This document shows positions 18,177 through 24,477 of a stretch of DNA of 25,363 nucleotides, piece by piece. Position 1 is the first letter of the stretch, and each line of letters starts with the position of its first letter. Position numbers and translations under genes: made by a program. The DNA is from Actinomycetales bacterium. Its GTDB lineage: Bacteria; Actinomycetota; Actinomycetes; Actinomycetales; Actinomycetaceae. The stretch covers positions 1-25,363 of the forward strand of contig JAAZBW010000350.1 of NCBI GenBank assembly GCA_012513625.1. The letters are read 5' to 3'. The notes below the pieces were generated by a model that did no database searches, had not been told where the DNA came from, and worked only from the letters and a program-made list of their open reading frames with translations.

Positions 18177-18253
18177 GACAACGAATGTTGCCACCGAGAA
18201 TGACGCTCTTCCGGCCGTTCTCAGCGTCACTCTCGGTGGCAAGGGTTGTTGTC
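18177..18253. repeat. Long imperfect inverted repeat (31-bp arms, 15-nt loop)
   Basis: Arms 18177-18207 and 18223-18253 match at 26 of 31 positions, including a perfect TTGCCACCGAGA core. Confidence 0.85.
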
Positions 18254-18259
18254 ATGGTG

Positions 18260-18372
18260 GCGGGCGTGGCGAGCCAGCGGGCGTGGCGAGCCAGCGGGCG
18301 TGGCGAGCCAGCGGGCGTGGCGAGCCAGCGGGCGTGGCGAGCCAGCGGGCGTGGCGAGCCAGCGGGCGTGGC
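18260..18372. repeat. Perfect tandem repeat, 6 x 17 nt plus 11 nt (GCGGGCGTGGCGAGCCA)
   Basis: Exact copies at 18260, 18277, 18294, 18311, 18328 and 18345; partial copy at 18362. Confidence 0.95.
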
Positions 18373-18438
18373 GGGCGAAGCGCGGCAGGCGCGGAACCCC
18401 ACCCCTCCACACACAGTGGACGCCCCGCCCACCGGTGG

Positions 18439-18457
18439 TGTCGGATTCCTGCTAGCC
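18439..18457 (+). promoter_or_regulatory. Candidate Ada-binding site upstream of ada-alkA
   Basis: TGTCGGATTCCTGCTAGCC, 17/19 identical to 23675-23693; ends 32 nt before ATG 18489. Confidence 0.6.
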
Positions 18458-18488
18458 ACCCCCGCCCCCACAGGGGCACCATGGAGGC

Positions 18489-20198
18489 ATGCTCCCCAGC
18501 GTCGAAGCCTGCCGCGCCGCCGTCGCGGCCAAGGACGCACGCTTCGACGGCGTCTTCTTCTCCGCCGTCACCACCACCGGCATCTTCTGCCGCCCCTCCT
18601 GCCCCGCCATGCCGAAGCTGGACAACCTCCGCTTCTACCCCTCCGCCGCCGCCGCGATCGACGCCGGCTTCCGCGCCTGCCGCCGCTGCCGCCCCGACGC
18701 CACCCCCGGCTCCCCCGAGTGGGACCAGCGCGCCGATATCGCCGCCCGCACGCTCAAACTCCTCACCGACGGCGCCGTCGACCGCGAGGGCGTCCCCGGC
18801 CTCGCCGCCCGCGTCGGCTACTCCGAGCGCCAGCTCGAACGCATCATCCGCGCGGAGTTCGGCGCCGGCCCGCTCGCCCTCGCACGCGCCCAGCGCGCCA
18901 CCACCGCGCGCACCCTGATCGAAACCACCGACCTCCCCTTCGCCGACATCGCCTTCGCCGCCGGCTTCGGCTCCATCCGCGCCTTCAACGACGCAGTCCG
19001 CGCCACCTTCGCCGCCACCCCCACCGAGCTGCGCGCGCGTCGTCGCCCCCTCCGGCCCGACGACCAAACTCGCCTCTCGTCTCTTCCCTCGCCGCGCGGC
19101 GGGACTCGCCCTCCGTCAACACCCCCACCCGACGACGGAACTCACCTCCCGTCTCTTCCCTCGCCGCACGGCGGAACCCACCTTCCGTCGGAAGCCGGGG
19201 CCGGCGAACTGGCTGCTCCGGGCGGGTGGCGGCCGCCCGCCGTCGTGACGGTGCGGCTCGCGGTGCGGCAGCCGTACGCACCGGAGCAATCGTTCGCACA
19301 CTTGGCGGTGACGGCTGTGCCGGGCGTCGAGGAGTGGACTGGCACGCACTACCGGCGGACGCTCCGGCTGCCGCACGGGCCCGGGATTGTGGCGGCGCGG
19401 CCGCACGCGGACCACGTGGAGGCCACGTTCACGCTCACGGATTTGCGGGATTTGCAGGCGGCGGTGGCGCGCACGCGGCGGATGTTGGACCTGGATGCGG
19501 ACCCGGTGGCGGTCGCGGAGCACCTGCGGCGCAATCCGCTTCTGGCTGCGGCGGTGGACGCGGTGCCGGGTCGGCGGGTGCCGCGCTCCGCCGACGGCGA
19601 GGAGATGGCCCTGCGGGCGGTGCTCGGCCAGCAGGTCTCGACGGCGGCGGCCCGGACTTTTGCGGCGCGGCTCGTGGCGCGGTTCGGGCAGCCGCTGCCG
19701 GGAAATGTGGGTCACGTTGGCGGGCACGGCCATGGCGGGCACACGCACGGCACCCTCACGCACCTGTTCCCCCGCGCGTCGGACCTCGCGGAGGCCGAGA
19801 TCCGCGTCATGCCGGCCGGACGGGCGGCGACCTTCCGGCGCCTCGCGGCCGAACTGGCAGATGGTCTCGACCTCGGACCCGGCGCCGACCGCGCGGAGGT
19901 CCGAGAACGACTCGTGGCGCTGCCGGGGATCGGGCCGTGGACCGTCGAGCTGGTGGCAATGCGGGCGCTCGGAGATCCGGACGCGTTCCCCGCCACCGAC
20001 CTCGGGGTGATCCGCGGCGCACAGGCGCTCGGCGTGGTCGGCGGCGGCGCCAGTGCCGGTGCCAGCGCCCGGACCAGCAGGAACGCCCGCCTTCTCGAGG
20101 CCGCCGAGGCGTGGCGACCCTGGCGCGCCTACGCCGTCCAGTACCTGTGGGCCGCCCACGAGCACCCCACCAACGCCCTGCCGGCACCATACAATTGA
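18489..20198 (+). CDS. alkA: Ada-AlkA fusion: Ada Zn/methyl-phosphotriester domain, AraC HTH and DNA-3-methyladenine glycosylase
   Basis: TTGIFCRPSCP and GFRACRRCRP (four Zn cysteines); AraC region; RAVLGQQVS; HhH-GPD motif LPGIGPWT...GDPDAFPATD; WRPWRAYA. Confidence 0.95.
   Translation: MLPSVEACRAAVAAKDARFDGVFFSAVTTTGIFCRPSCPAMPKLDNLRFYPSAAAAIDAGFRACRRCRPDATPGSPEWDQRADIAARTLKLLTDGAVDREGVPGLAARVGYSERQLERIIRAEFGAGPLALARAQRATTARTLIETTDLPFADIAFAAGFGSIRAFNDAVRATFAATPTELRARRRPLRPDDQTRLSSLPSPRGGTRPPSTPPPDDGTHLPSLPSPHGGTHLPSEAGAGELAAPGGWRPPAVVTVRLAVRQPYAPEQSFAHLAVTAVPGVEEWTGTHYRRTLRLPHGPGIVAARPHADHVEATFTLTDLRDLQAAVARTRRMLDLDADPVAVAEHLRRNPLLAAAVDAVPGRRVPRSADGEEMALRAVLGQQVSTAAARTFAARLVARFGQPLPGNVGHVGGHGHGGHTHGTLTHLFPRASDLAEAEIRVMPAGRAATFRRLAAELADGLDLGPGADRAEVRERLVALPGIGPWTVELVAMRALGDPDAFPATDLGVIRGAQALGVVGGGASAGASARTSRNARLLEAAEAWRPWRAYAVQYLWAAHEHPTNALPAPYN
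19056..19190 (+). repeat. In-frame 36-nt-period repeat (4 degenerate units) in the Ada-AlkA linker
   Basis: AC[T/C]C[G/A]CC cores at 19068, 19104, 19140 and 19176; encodes a Pro/Ser-rich 12-aa repeat. Confidence 0.8.
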
Positions 20199-20224
20199 CG
20201 CCGGTCTCAGCCACTCCATTACGT

Positions 20225-21334
20225 CTACGGCACCTCGGACTCTCCAATCAAACTGGCAGAAGCCAAGGCGGAGAACTGAACCACTGCTGGAGCCTTGAGT
20301 CCCTCATGCGGCTTGGCCACGGTGACAACGAGTTCGCTGCCCAGGAACCTTCCAGCTTCTGGGTCCGCGTAGAGCACCGTCACATACTCCCGGCCAGGTC
20401 CGGGTATCTGGATTGCGGCTGCCTCTCTACCTAGGCGATCCACAGTCTCGCCAAGATAAGTGATCCCATCCGTCCTCGCCAGTGCCTCCCAGAGAGTACT
20501 GACGAGGACGGGATCTAGAACATACTTGGCATTCATGTCTACTATCGATTCACCGATACAGCTGGGATTGAGCGGGCAATCTGCAGCGACCTGTTCCGCA
20601 AGCAGCACTGGATCAGTGGAGAGGCTCGCGATATACTCGGACGTCTCGGCGCTCGTCCAGAAGACTTCGTCCCTCGTCACGGATCCGGTTCTTGAACCAT
20701 CCTCATCCGACATTTGGCCCTTCGCATCAATCAGCTGGCCACTCCAGACAATTTCTCGCACCGAACCGTCCGGAAAGATGTAACGCTCCTGGCGGGTCGC
20801 CATTTTCGGATCGAAGTCTTCACTATTGGACACTTGCAGGCCTTGGAGCGTCCAACCGACTGTCACAATCCGCTGAATGGAATCTCCGCTGGCGGCCATC
20901 GCCTGTTGGGAAGCGGCCTCGGCAAGCCCCTCCAATATCGAGGACGCGGACTTTCCTTCCTTGTTATGAAATTCTCGCATTAGCGGCGTCCATGCGGGTG
21001 CGACATTGTCACCCTCACCGCCAGTGTCGTGCAACACAAGCCCAACTGCTGCGGCGACCACGACCGCTGCGGCTCCAAGCGCCATAGCAAATTTCCGATA
21101 TCCCCGCCCAGGCGTACGCATCAGCGATCGTTGTTGCGCCCTACTCTCACGAAGGATCTGCTCGAGGCCACGTTGCGCCGCCGCGTCAGTACGAATTCGC
21201 TCCTCAGAACTCAATTCATGAATGCTGGAAGATATTCCCGCAGACCTTAACAATTCACGTGTTTCAGTCTCGAGGCGATCAATATTCATAGGCTGTTTGC
21301 GCCTATTTCCGCTTGAGTGCTGGATGGGACACAT
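20225..21334 (-). CDS. CU044_5270-like single-pass membrane protein (probable anti-sigma/sensor partner of the upstream ECF)
   Basis: Short cytoplasmic N-terminus, basic stretch, one TM helix (FAMALGAAAVVVAAAVGLVL), LSTDPVLL, LWEALA..DGI..LGETVDRLGR. Alternative start at 21289. Confidence 0.7.
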   Translation of the reverse strand: MCPIQHSSGNRRKQPMNIDRLETETRELLRSAGISSSIHELSSEERIRTDAAAQRGLEQILRESRAQQRSLMRTPGRGYRKFAMALGAAAVVVAAAVGLVLHDTGGEGDNVAPAWTPLMREFHNKEGKSASSILEGLAEAASQQAMAASGDSIQRIVTVGWTLQGLQVSNSEDFDPKMATRQERYIFPDGSVREIVWSGQLIDAKGQMSDEDGSRTGSVTRDEVFWTSAETSEYIASLSTDPVLLAEQVAADCPLNPSCIGESIVDMNAKYVLDPVLVSTLWEALARTDGITYLGETVDRLGREAAAIQIPGPGREYVTVLYADPEAGRFLGSELVVTVAKPHEGLKAPAVVQFSALASASLIGESEVP

Positions 21335-21839
21335 CGCCCCTCCTCTCCAGATTATATCTCAGACGGTCCCTTGCCCGGGAGAGACGCATGCTTGCCGCCT
21401 TGGGCGTACAGTTGAGAATAGTCGCGATCTCCTGAACTTGGTAGCCGTCGGCCAGGAGCGTCAAGATCTCTCGATCCGATTTGTTCAGACAGGACAGGAG
21501 AGACCTACCTCCACTTGCATTTTCATAAATGTCCGCAGTGTCAGGCTCGAACGATTTTCGCGTCCTCAATTCTGAGCCGACCGCATCTACGAGATCCCTC
21601 CTTCGAGCTTCACTTCTCCTTTGGTTCCTTATGAGTCCATCGAGGATCTTATAAGCGAACCCCTGCAGTCGAGCCTCTTCGGCCGTATTGCGTGGATAGG
21701 AAAGCTTCTTCATCCAAATCGTTCGCAGGGCCTCTATGGCCACATCATTCGCAGTATCGACATCGAGGCGTCGACGCCCGTAACGCAAGAGCGCAGGATG
21801 CATCTCTCGGAAGAAGACCTCGAACTCACGCTCATCCAC
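21303..21839 (-). CDS. ECF-type RNA polymerase sigma-70 factor
   Basis: Region 2 (FEVFFREMHPALLRYG...ANDVAIEALRTIW) and region 4 (LNKSDREILTL...YQVQEIATILNC...ASMRLSRARDRL). Start codon uncertain. Confidence 0.85.
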   Translation of the reverse strand: MDEREFEVFFREMHPALLRYGRRRLDVDTANDVAIEALRTIWMKKLSYPRNTAEEARLQGFAYKILDGLIRNQRRSEARRRDLVDAVGSELRTRKSFEPDTADIYENASGGRSLLSCLNKSDREILTLLADGYQVQEIATILNCTPKAASMRLSRARDRLRYNLERRGDVSHPALKRK

Positions 21840-21984
21840 AGAAGCACCAATTGCTCGAATCTCGATCAGGGAAGCTGGTACAGGATGCAAGCATACCGTT
21901 CGCGCCCACCTTGTGACCTCGATTTCAAATTCAGAGTGTGGAGGACAATACGCTTGCCCACCTGCACCGGGCCGGCACGCGAAC

Positions 21985-22389
21985 TCACTTCGCCGCCCTT
22001 GGCGGATCCTCTGATGAGATCTCAATTGTCACTGGCACGCCATCCGCAAGCTCCTCCGCCATAGCCCGAATAGATTCGAGCTCTGGTGCCGGAATATCCG
22101 CCCCGTCAGAGTATATTGTAACGATCAGTCGGTTCGAAACGCTGTCGAACCGAGCAGCCTTTCCATATGGGAACTCTTTCAGGCCCTCAAGGACTCGAAA
22201 TTCGAGCACATTCGACGTTCCCTCCTGCGTCGGTTCCCCCGACGGCAGCCAGGTTTGAGACTCCTGAGTAGCCGACGAAGGCACTCCCTCTCCACTGCAC
22301 CCCAGGACCAGAAACAGAGGAGTCGCAATGACAACCCCGAGCCCTTTCGGCACCGAAATTGATCTACTGTTCCGCATCGGTACTGTCAT
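21985..22389 (-). CDS. Putative lipoprotein consisting of a protease pro-domain-like region only
   Basis: Basic N-region, hydrophobic stretch and near-canonical lipobox (VLG-C). The C-terminal roughly 85 aa align by eye to the pro-region of the upstream protease. Start may be 22401, 22389 or 22377. Confidence 0.65.
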   Translation of the reverse strand: MTVPMRNSRSISVPKGLGVVIATPLFLVLGCSGEGVPSSATQESQTWLPSGEPTQEGTSNVLEFRVLEGLKEFPYGKAARFDSVSNRLIVTIYSDGADIPAPELESIRAMAEELADGVPVTIEISSEDPPRAAK

Positions 22390-22397
22390 CGCCAGAC

Positions 22398-23537
22398 TCA
22401 ACTCACTTTAACTGATACACCAGATATTGCACTTGCCCATGATATTGCTGAGATGTACGTGCCTCCTTGATTAAAGCCTGACGAGAAGGCGTACCCAGCA
22501 TTTGCCACGAACCATGGACCACCCGAATCTCCGTTGGTTATGATATTGCTGGTAGTATAATGCAGGCCACAATAGGTCTTGTTGACGTTCCCGTAGTATA
22601 CGCAGCCTGCATAGGATTCTACAGACGTCGATCCATAGCCTGTGTTCTTACCGTATTTGTATAGCAGAATCCCGGGAGTGACAATCCCAAGTGATGTTAT
22701 CGTGCGATAAGCGGAGCCCATATAGAACCTGTTAACAGGCGTGCCCCCCGTCAGGGTCGTGAAACGTACATCATATGAGTGCGAAGCGACGTAGGTGGCT
22801 CCCGTGGTGTCACCGTCATAAGTACTGGGTTTCGTGGTGCAGTGTGCAGCCGTGAGGATGCCGTAGGCCGTTCCCTTGGTCCCAATAAATCCACCCGTGC
22901 AACTTCCGTACGCCAATCCCCCTTCAGTATCGGACGCTGCTCGTGGCCCGTCTTGTGCCTCTTCATATTCCACCTCGATGGTCAACCCCATTTGACCGAT
23001 ACCGTGATCTCCAGCAAGTGCCGCATCTACGCGCTCAGCCGCGACCTCGTGTTCGACCGCCCAGACGGTGACAATTACGGAGTGCGTTGCGGGTTCATAC
23101 CGTGCAGCGAGAGATGTAGATGGCACATCCGAGAGGAGCGTGAGGACCGCACGCTCGACATCGGACCTTTGATCGAAGCGGAGCGCGTCGGGATGGGCGG
23201 TCTCCACAACTATCTTCACCTCGCGTGACTCAGCGAGCCCCTCCACTTCCTCCACAGCCTGGGCGCTGACGACAACGAAACCGTGGTCGTCGCGCCACGC
23301 GTGATCCACTACATGCGCCTGATGATGATCTAAGACTTCAGCCAGGAAGGAGGTGAACACCTCCTGCTTCTCTGTGGCTCTGATTTCGTCAAGCTCCAAC
23401 TGGGTGATGGCTGACGTCCCCGGCCCGATTGGCACTTCCGCCGAAATCGGGGTGAAGCCCCCCGCTACCAGTAGGGCTGCGGTGGCCAGCACGACGAGCG
23501 CTCGCCGGCGTTTGGCGTTCCAGTTTCCGTTCTTCAT
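22398..23537 (-). CDS. Secreted S1 (alpha-lytic protease/streptogrisin-like) serine endopeptidase, pre-pro form
   Basis: Signal peptide; pro-region; catalytic triad LTAAHC, YDVRF, GDSGGP; conserved CTGGF; GGAAGGGG RBS. Confidence 0.9.
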   Translation of the reverse strand: MKNGNWNAKRRRALVVLATAALLVAGGFTPISAEVPIGPGTSAITQLELDEIRATEKQEVFTSFLAEVLDHHQAHVVDHAWRDDHGFVVVSAQAVEEVEGLAESREVKIVVETAHPDALRFDQRSDVERAVLTLLSDVPSTSLAARYEPATHSVIVTVWAVEHEVAAERVDAALAGDHGIGQMGLTIEVEYEEAQDGPRAASDTEGGLAYGSCTGGFIGTKGTAYGILTAAHCTTKPSTYDGDTTGATYVASHSYDVRFTTLTGGTPVNRFYMGSAYRTITSLGIVTPGILLYKYGKNTGYGSTSVESYAGCVYYGNVNKTYCGLHYTTSNIITNGDSGGPWFVANAGYAFSSGFNQGGTYISAISWASAISGVSVKVS

Positions 23538-23674
23538 GTCAGATCCCCTTCCCGAACCTGTCGTCCCACTGCGGCAATGGCTGTGACGCGGCGAGCGGCG
23601 TGGTGACCGCGCGCGACCTCCTACTTGTTACATGTCCGGCAGCTATCTGAATCCCACAAACAACGCCACGTTGA

Positions 23675-23693
23675 TGTCGGATTTCAGCTAGCC
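23675..23693 (+). promoter_or_regulatory. Candidate Ada-binding site upstream of ogt
   Basis: TGTCGGATTTCAGCTAGCC, 17/19 identical to 18439-18457; ends 32 nt before an ATG at 23725. Confidence 0.55.
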
Positions 23694-23916
23694 GGGCGCT
23701 GTCTCATGGACCAGACTCGTTGTCATGCCTGTGAACCGAAGCTCAAAAACCGAGGTTGGTGCCGACGGGTGCTGGGTGTAGCCCCCCCACAGTCCAGAGT
23801 TGGGCCGCCCACGAACACCCCACGAACTCACTGCCACCTGCGGGCCGGGTGAGCAGTACGGAACCCCGTCGTCGTCCGGGCCCCACGAGGGCCCATCCCA
23901 CCGGAAAGGAACGCTC

Positions 23917-24477
23917 ATGAAGTACCGCGTCCACCCCACGCCACTCGGCGAATACCTCATCACCGTGGACGATTCCGGCGCCGTCACCGGCATCTACCCG
24001 GTCCGCGACCGCCACCTCCCGCCGCACCTCGGGATTCGCGACGACGACGTCGCCCCCGACGCAGCCCACCAGCTCGACGAGTACTTTGCCGGCGCCCGTC
24101 GGGAATTCGACTTCCCGATGAGCCCGTCTGGGAGCGAGTTCCAGAAGGCCGTGTGGGCGGCGATCGCTGCGATCCCGGCAGGTGGGCTGCGGACCTACGG
24201 GGATATCGCGGCGGAGCTCGGCTCGTCCCCGCGGGCCGTCGTCGGTGCAACAGGGCGGAATCCAATCTCGATCGTGGTCCCCTGCCACCGCGTGGTGGCA
24301 AGCACGGGGGCGATCACCGGCTACGCCGGCGGCCTCTCCACGAAGGAGTGGCTGCTCCGCCACGAGGGCTACACGATCACCCCGGCCTCGGGGCGGAACC
24401 CGAAGGAAACCGCGGCGCTCGTCACCCCGCCCACGAGCAATGGCGCCGCCCCTGCGGGCGACGGTGCTACCCCCTAG
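23917..24477 (+). CDS. ogt: Methylated-DNA--protein-cysteine S-methyltransferase
   Basis: TPLG, QLDEYFAG.RREF, FQKAVW, TYGDIA and active-site IVVPCHRVV; GAAAGGA RBS. Confidence 0.95.
   Translation: MKYRVHPTPLGEYLITVDDSGAVTGIYPVRDRHLPPHLGIRDDDVAPDAAHQLDEYFAGARREFDFPMSPSGSEFQKAVWAAIAAIPAGGLRTYGDIAAELGSSPRAVVGATGRNPISIVVPCHRVVASTGAITGYAGGLSTKEWLLRHEGYTITPASGRNPKETAALVTPPTSNGAAPAGDGATP

Follow-up and report, generated by a model that had tools for sequence, protein, structure and literature searches.

The stretch of DNA analysed here, 25,363 nucleotides long and called the window below, is contig JAAZBW010000350.1 of assembly GCA_012513625.1, from an Actinomycetales bacterium of the family Actinomycetaceae. 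It contains two alkylation-repair genes: an ada-alkA fusion gene and, 3.7 kb from it behind three genes on the opposite strand, ogt. Upstream of each of them lies a copy of the same 19-bp element, referred to here as the box. The best explanation of this arrangement, and a likely one judging from the sequence comparisons given below, is that the box is the operator of the Ada-AlkA protein in leaderless promoters, with the second copy driving the leader of ogt. The features concerned are the following.

18439 to 18457, + strand: candidate Ada box of the ada-alkA promoter, TGTCGGATTCCTGCTAGCC, at about -50 to -32 from the predicted transcription start; 27.3 bits; orthologous boxes stand at equal distance.
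18477 to 18482, + strand: -10-like hexamer CACCAT (nAnnnT), at -12 to -7 from the ATG; GATGCT-type hexamers occupy this place in the 80 named loci described below.
18489 to 20198, + strand: ada-alkA fusion gene (Pfam Ada_Zn_binding, HTH_18, AlkA_N and HhH-GPD), its ATG being the predicted leaderless transcription start.
23675 to 23693, + strand: second candidate Ada box, TGTCGGATTTCAGCTAGCC, probably a paralogous promoter copy, upstream of ogt; 26.0 bits.
23712 to 23717, + strand: -10-like hexamer CAGACT, at -13 to -8 from the ATG at 23725; the same hexamer is found in the ada-alkA promoter of G097, a genome of the same genus.
23725 to 23781, + strand: open reading frame (ORF) of 18 codons, from ATG to TAG (23779-23781), probably a start left over from an ada-alkA copy since deleted, and the 5' end of the predicted ogt leader.
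23801 to 23835, + strand: remnant of an ada-alkA 3' end within the ogt leader, 31/35 identical to window 20148-20182.
23903 to 23911, + strand: Shine-Dalgarno-like GGAAAGGAA, 5 nt before the ogt ATG.
23917 to 24477, + strand: ogt, encoding O6-methylguanine-DNA methyltransferase (Pfam Methyltransf_1N and DNA_binding_1), with the likely true start MKYRVHPTPLGEY.

In a motif scan of the window, both copies of the box read TGTCGGATT-N3-GCTAGCC and lie on the + strand. The two 19-mers are identical at all 16 specified positions and differ only at the three central ones, just as the initial annotation had described for the sites upstream of ada-alkA and ogt. They are the sole matches in the window even when up to three mismatches are allowed (0.18 expected from shuffled sequences). 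The same is true at up to two mismatches in the genome of the window, a 2.2-Mb metagenome-assembled genome (MAG) that is 72% complete, where the reversed motif used as control gives no match. The scores listed above derive from a position weight matrix (PWM) of 61 unique sites, which detects nothing above 8 bits in the window beyond these two boxes. Each box ends 32 positions before an ATG (18489 or 23725), so that 31 nt separate the first one from the ada-alkA start, and a CAnnnT hexamer follows 19-20 positions after each box. Here too, the coordinates and both hexamers were found as originally claimed.

An alignment of Ada N-terminal regions (A1) was used to fetch 80 named Ada-AlkA loci, originating from Streptomyces, Actinomadura, Micromonospora, Kribbella, Mycobacterium, Geodermatophilus, Acidimicrobiales and one Solirubrobacteraceae MAG. 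With a PWM built from the first 11 sites, the box could be detected in 80 of the 80 loci at a mean of 21.3 bits, compared to 3.7 for the reverse strand and -1.6 for shuffles. The proposal that it is the site of the Ada-AlkA fusion is thus supported by comparative evidence. The 61 unique sites yield the consensus TGTCSGAWWnYCGCYAGnn, in which G2, C4, G13, C14 and G17 are invariant. Within the order, a related box precedes the Ada-AlkA orthologs of G097 and of nine other genera or families at an equal distance from the start codon. When the literal motif of the window was searched for throughout the family at up to two mismatches, the result was uninformative: matches occurred in 53 of 100 genomes, mostly at unrelated places, and the reversed control was not much lower. 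This search was replaced by the PWM and by searches for the whole architecture.

The geometry downstream of the box is conserved as well. An in-frame ATG, GTG or TTG is found 30-32 nt after the box in 77 of the 80 named loci. The hexamer at -12 to -7 from this start codon is GATGCT-like, with an A at -11 in 58/80 and a T at -7 in 60/80. Leaderless actinobacterial genes have their -10 element placed in just this way, 7 nt ahead of the start codon. The nAnnnT hexamer in this position implies a leaderless promoter, in which the predicted transcription start coincides with the start codon. From such a start, the box would therefore lie at about -50 to -32, where the -35 element would otherwise be located.

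The box is also specific. Five complete Streptomyces genomes (47.5 Mb) contain nine matches at up to one mismatch, versus four for the reversed control. Eight of these nine display the full geometry: five are ada-alkA promoters, while the other three, with a start codon 30-32 nt downstream, precede two DUF1203 genes and one gene for a protein of the phosphoenolpyruvate (PEP)-mutase family. The remaining match has its mismatch at the invariant G13 and no start codon at 30-32 nt. In an even sample of the phylum (301 genomes), the whole architecture, defined as the box, 20-24 nt, ANNNT, 5-7 nt and RTG, was found 43 times, versus about seven times for the control. Outside the ogt site of the window there are 42 such matches, and 37 of them open an Ada-type ORF. 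The others precede one stand-alone ogt (in genome G243), one DUF1203 gene and one gene for a major facilitator superfamily (MFS) transporter, or lack a usable ORF (two matches). In this preset test, the expected enrichment at alkylation-repair genes was thus observed.

The presence of the box also follows that of the regulator. The Ada zinc domain (PF02805) is encoded in 100 of the 301 genomes, 36 of which have an architecture match, and 36 of the 37 genomes with a match carry PF02805. Among the 201 PF02805-negative genomes there is a single one with a match, which precedes only a 15-codon ORF. In the same sample, 29 of the 30 Ada loci with a full N-terminal zinc domain (the strong class) have the box at the right distance, and the box is missing from loci of proteins whose zinc motif is only partial and not N-terminal. 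Closer to the window, the same-genus genomes G040 (99% complete) and G071 possess ogt, but neither ada-alkA nor any box above 8 bits by the PWM, so that the box follows the regulator here too. The pattern is consistent at every taxonomic depth examined. As for the stand-alone ogt of G243 (locus L255, contig C187), it has its own box and is divergent from an Ada-like gene, whose box on the opposite strand is a weaker variant, TGTCCGAATATGTCCCGTC; the stretch between the two genes looks like a divergent two-box control region.

The Ada-AlkA protein of the window can be compared with E. coli Ada. Its four zinc-ligand cysteines are kept (FCRPSC...CRRC) and align with the E. coli N-Ada structures 1U8B and 1ZGW; C34, C38, C64 and C67 are invariant in alignment A1 and correspond to the E. 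coli ligands C38, C42, C69 and C72. The zinc domain is followed by an AraC-type helix-turn-helix (HTH_18, residues 105-184, E = 5.5e-20), and the structures of Rob, SoxS and AraC match residues 87-190. In E. coli Ada, R45 (which contacts the A box) and R71 are the DNA-contacting arginines (PMC3788762). The equivalent of R71 (in CxRC) is kept in Ada-AlkA. The residue aligned with R45, on the other hand, is Met in the window protein and varies between V, R, M, T, L and others across 136 orthologs. Covariation of this residue with box position 5 was considered (C5/R 15, C5/non-R 34, G5/R 9, G5/non-R 77). An association is present, but it is confounded by phylogeny and was not used.

Two further observations concern the distribution of box subtypes. 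The Ada N-terminus of the genus (window 18489-19058) is about 70-72% identical to those of Actinomadura and Streptomyces, and 57-65% to those of genomes of its own family; the box of the genus belongs to the TGTCGG/TGTCGC-ATT subtype. Taken together, this hints at joint acquisition of ada-alkA and its promoter by horizontal transfer. Three genomes of Streptomyces type (G144, L198/L214; G335, L196/L213; G413, L194/L212) contain two Ada-AlkA paralogs whose boxes differ in subtype. The paralog of the MQNGMHTD... type is preceded by TGTCGGATT, that of the VNDEDTRYEAV... type by TGTCCGWTT.

In E. coli and Pseudomonas putida, the Ada box is composed of an A box (AAT/ATT), a spacer of six nucleotides and a B box (GCAA); it reads AAAGCGCA at ada and AAAGCAA at alkA (PMC3788762). 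The actinobacterial site is similarly asymmetric, lies next to or overlapping -35 upstream of ada and alkylation-repair genes, has an A/T-rich triplet with a GC(N)A element after it, and goes with a regulator in which a Cys4 zinc methyl-acceptor domain is combined with an AraC-type HTH. In contrast to the E. coli box, the triplet and GCYA are only 3 nt apart (ATT-N3-GCTA, versus six), and there is an extra conserved 5' half, TGTCSG, with the invariant G2 and C4. Furthermore, the actinobacterial promoters appear leaderless, unlike those of E. coli and P. putida. AWT-N6-GCAA is absent from both promoters of the window, and AWTNNNNNNGCAA matches the window once, at 20567 inside a coding region, which is chance level. 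Together with the different spacing and the variable R45 equivalent, this bears out the earlier statement that the box is distinct from AAT-N6-GCAA.

At alkA of E. coli, the activator has a site overlapping -35, in a class II-like arrangement. The actinobacterial box likewise ends at about -32 and fills the -35 position, with no recognisable -35 hexamer (for alkA see also PMC3788762); unlike for alkA, the transcript is predicted to have no 5' untranslated region. Mycobacterium tuberculosis has an adaA-alkA/ogt operon, Rv1317c-Rv1316c (PMC7617703), and shares with the window the AdaA-AlkA fusion partnered by ogt. The box reads TGTCGGTTTTCCGCCAGTG at a Mycobacterium sp. locus (L160), and the genomes of family f20 have the same type. 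The M. tuberculosis operon is said to be inducible by N-methyl-N'-nitro-N-nitrosoguanidine (Yang et al., 2011). In contrast to the mycobacterial operon, the ogt of the window does not lie directly downstream of ada-alkA and has its own promoter copy.

The marboxes of MarA, SoxS and Rob are asymmetric sites of about 20 bp for monomeric activators of the AraC family. The actinobacterial box resembles them in length, in asymmetry and in its orientation-dependent placement relative to -35, and the regulator shares the HTH_18 fold. There is no resemblance in sequence, however; the additional zinc domain probably reads part of the actinobacterial site, and activity would be expected to depend on cysteine methylation. 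To our knowledge, an Ada operator has been defined only for E. coli-like bacteria. Reviews still describe the organisation and mechanism of the adaptive response outside this group as open (PMC7617703). The comparative evidence supports the view that the actinobacterial box is a lineage-specific variant of the Ada-type operator, situated in a leaderless class-II-like promoter.

The following mechanism can be proposed on the model of E. coli Ada (PMC3788762, PMC7617703), with a site overlapping -35 as at alkA. The N-terminal zinc domain of Ada-AlkA would take a methyl group from a methylphosphotriester in the DNA onto a cysteine. The methylated protein would then bind the asymmetric box by means of its zinc domain and its AraC-type HTH. 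Located at about -50 to -32, the box would stand in for the -35 element, and Ada-AlkA would recruit RNA polymerase to the weak nAnnnT -10. Transcription would begin at the start codon itself, generating a leaderless mRNA. Within the window, the first copy would accordingly serve the autoregulation of ada-alkA, and the second would drive a leader of about 190 nt running into ogt. Four parts of this scheme are inferred by analogy: that Ada-AlkA binds the box, that this depends on methylation, that transcription is activated and not repressed, and where exactly it starts.

The second copy has a particular history. ATG 23725, although at the same distance from its box as the ada-alkA start, was rejected as start of ogt: the frame ends in TAG after 18 codons, the Ogt proteins of the same genus align from the Met at 23917, and a 2-nt indel is tolerated. 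The latter is a frameshifting 2-nt insertion directly after 23781, seen in a strain variant of run X1, on account of which the stretch after 23781 fits a lack of coding constraint. The identical geometry claimed for the two repair genes consequently holds for the promoter copies and fails for the gene starts, since 23725 opens the 18-codon ORF and ogt most likely starts at 23917.

G097 has PfkB, then box-ada-alkA-ogt, then three genes on the opposite strand. The window has PfkB, box-ada-alkA, the same three opposite-strand genes and then the second box with ogt. The three-gene block (20225-23537, - strand), which in G097 adjoins the intact operon, encodes a 369-aa protein of no known function, a sigma-70 region-4 protein and a trypsin-like protein. 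The remnant at 23801-23835 is 29/35 identical to the ada-alkA 3' end of G097 and colinear with the operon of that genome. A contig of run X4 (wastewater) joins 20170 to 23916 via 53 other letters, which represents the operon form in a related strain. The arrangement of the window is no assembly artefact, as contigs of run X1 cover the context of the second box and ogt and run X3 covers the leader. Probably, ogt was split from an ancestral ada-alkA-ogt operon, keeping or receiving a promoter copy together with an ada-alkA stub. Because the ogt leader keeps this stub and the sister genome has the intact operon, the two copies in the window are probably paralogous, which would account for their identical geometry; for the same reason, they do not count as two independent observations. 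The 18-codon ORF has, on direct reading, no similarity to the Ada N-terminus beyond ATGC, and its designation as a relic start codon is based on the 3' remnant and on synteny, not on similarity of the ORF.

It may be asked whether the second copy still works. The box of ada-alkA could be a working operator and the copy at 23675 merely a promoter fossil of the rearrangement, with ogt expressed from elsewhere or constitutively. Such a fossil would fit the short frame opened by ATG 23725 (18 codons only), the 3' remnant that marks the region as rearrangement debris, the 224 nt between the box and the ogt ATG, and the constitutive expression of ogt in E. coli. Nevertheless, we consider it unlikely. 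The 25-nt local match between the two promoters is confined to the box region, and the spacer between box and -10 has diverged beyond recognition from that of ada-alkA, whereas the 16 informative positions, with all invariant bases, and the well-spaced -10 are intact; the ogt copy therefore looks functional. Moreover, between the box and ogt there is no terminator and no other promoter-like site, including any sigma-70 consensus promoter. No structured RNA was detected in the ogt leader (z = +1.17). In most relatives ogt is under control of the box via the operon, and in G243, which is unrelated, a stand-alone ogt is preceded by a box of its own.

It is very improbable that the box is read by a factor other than Ada-AlkA, for instance as the extended -35 of an alternative sigma factor or by a repressor travelling with ada. 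Binding by Ada-AlkA is, admittedly, deduced, and the sigma-70 region-4 protein is encoded between the boxes (21303-22025), in a gene block that adjoins the operon in G097 too. Across the phylum, however, ada is the sole gene consistently linked to the box, which is essentially missing from genomes without the Ada zinc domain. With 19 conserved bp it is too long for a -35 element, a length that does fit a monomer site of the AraC type. Among the ORFs inspected, there is also no sigma gene at the Streptomyces box loci of DUF1203 and the PEP-mutase.

An action of the element in RNA is likewise very improbable. Here, transcription would start upstream of the box, placing it within a 5' leader of about 50 nt. 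The start site at the start codon is indeed a prediction, and a GGAGG-like run occurs just before several start codons. This run is only 1-2 nt from the ATG, though, too close for function as a Shine-Dalgarno sequence, and most of the 80 loci have nAnnnT at exactly -12 to -7, the signature of leaderless actinobacterial promoters. No covarying structure was seen, and the position of the box matches that of activator sites of the E. coli alkA type. Finally, a chance match of the two 19-mers, conceivable in view of the small sample inside one window, is already refuted by the 0.18 matches expected even at three mismatches and by the conservation of the box across the phylum.

The operator function of the box thus remains the preferred reading, against which several points must be set. 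The two -10 hexamers of the window, CACCAT and CAGACT, are weak. The second box is 224 nt away from the start of ogt, so that a promoter driving this gene is only predicted. The sampled genomes are kin, and the counts given above overstate their independence. As to the start site, the sequence of the window was found in DNA metagenome runs only and in no RNA run. Lastly, no description of an actinobacterial Ada operator, including a mycobacterial one, was found in the open-access papers searched, so that a published one may have been missed.

The region upstream of the first box contains two repeats. A 17-nt tandem repeat, GCGGGCGTGGCGAGCCA, is present in about seven copies at 18243-18395, between the PfkB gene and the box. 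The promoter region of G097 does not contain it, and its copy number is uncertain because between 18289 and 18430 the depth doubles and the Logan contigs of run X1 are broken. Just 5' of it, near the start of the PfkB gene, lies a 31-nt inverted repeat (18177-18253; 84% complementary, 15-nt loop).

The clearest candidate for a further member of the regulon is DUF1203 (PF06718). This gene was found in 20 of 41 Streptomycetaceae genomes. In 20 of these 20 (L276-L295), the best upstream PWM match is the box-like YGTCCGnWWnCCGCCRG, with an ATG 30-31 nt after it. A score of at least 13 bits is reached by 12 of the 20, and the maximum on the reverse strand is 2.1. These boxes belong to the TGTCCGWTT subtype, that of the VNDEDTRYEAV... 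paralog of Ada-AlkA, and box-like sequences were also seen at the DUF1203 loci L173, L177 and L215. In the 72% complete genome of the window itself DUF1203 was not found, and a literature search for its function returned nothing. Beside it, the gene of the PEP-mutase/isocitrate-lyase family (L179 in G121) and that of the MFS transporter (L187 in G230) each display a box with full leaderless geometry, in a single instance each. DUF1203 is a candidate new member of the adaptive-response regulon. It is possible, although slightly more open to doubt than to belief, that the box defines a phylum-wide Ada regulon which is read differently (in its spacing, its TGTCSG half and the lack of a conserved R45) and which has also recruited genes so far not linked to alkylation damage, of which DUF1203 is the clearest case.

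The adaptive response to alkylation counts among the textbook examples of a regulatory switch. A 19-bp operator that is conserved and keeps a fixed leaderless geometry would make Ada regulons readable from sequence across the Actinomycetota, including Streptomyces and Mycobacterium, and the conservation of the box predicts which of its bases to mutate. The box would likewise offer a natural comparison for studying one zinc-methyl switch on DNA sites of different spacing. The second promoter copy would explain how ogt, although no longer part of the operon, can remain inducible. In addition, the box points to candidate damage-response genes, namely DUF1203, the PEP-mutase-family enzyme and the MFS transporter. 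If this holds true, DUF1203 would represent a new function in alkylation repair or tolerance.

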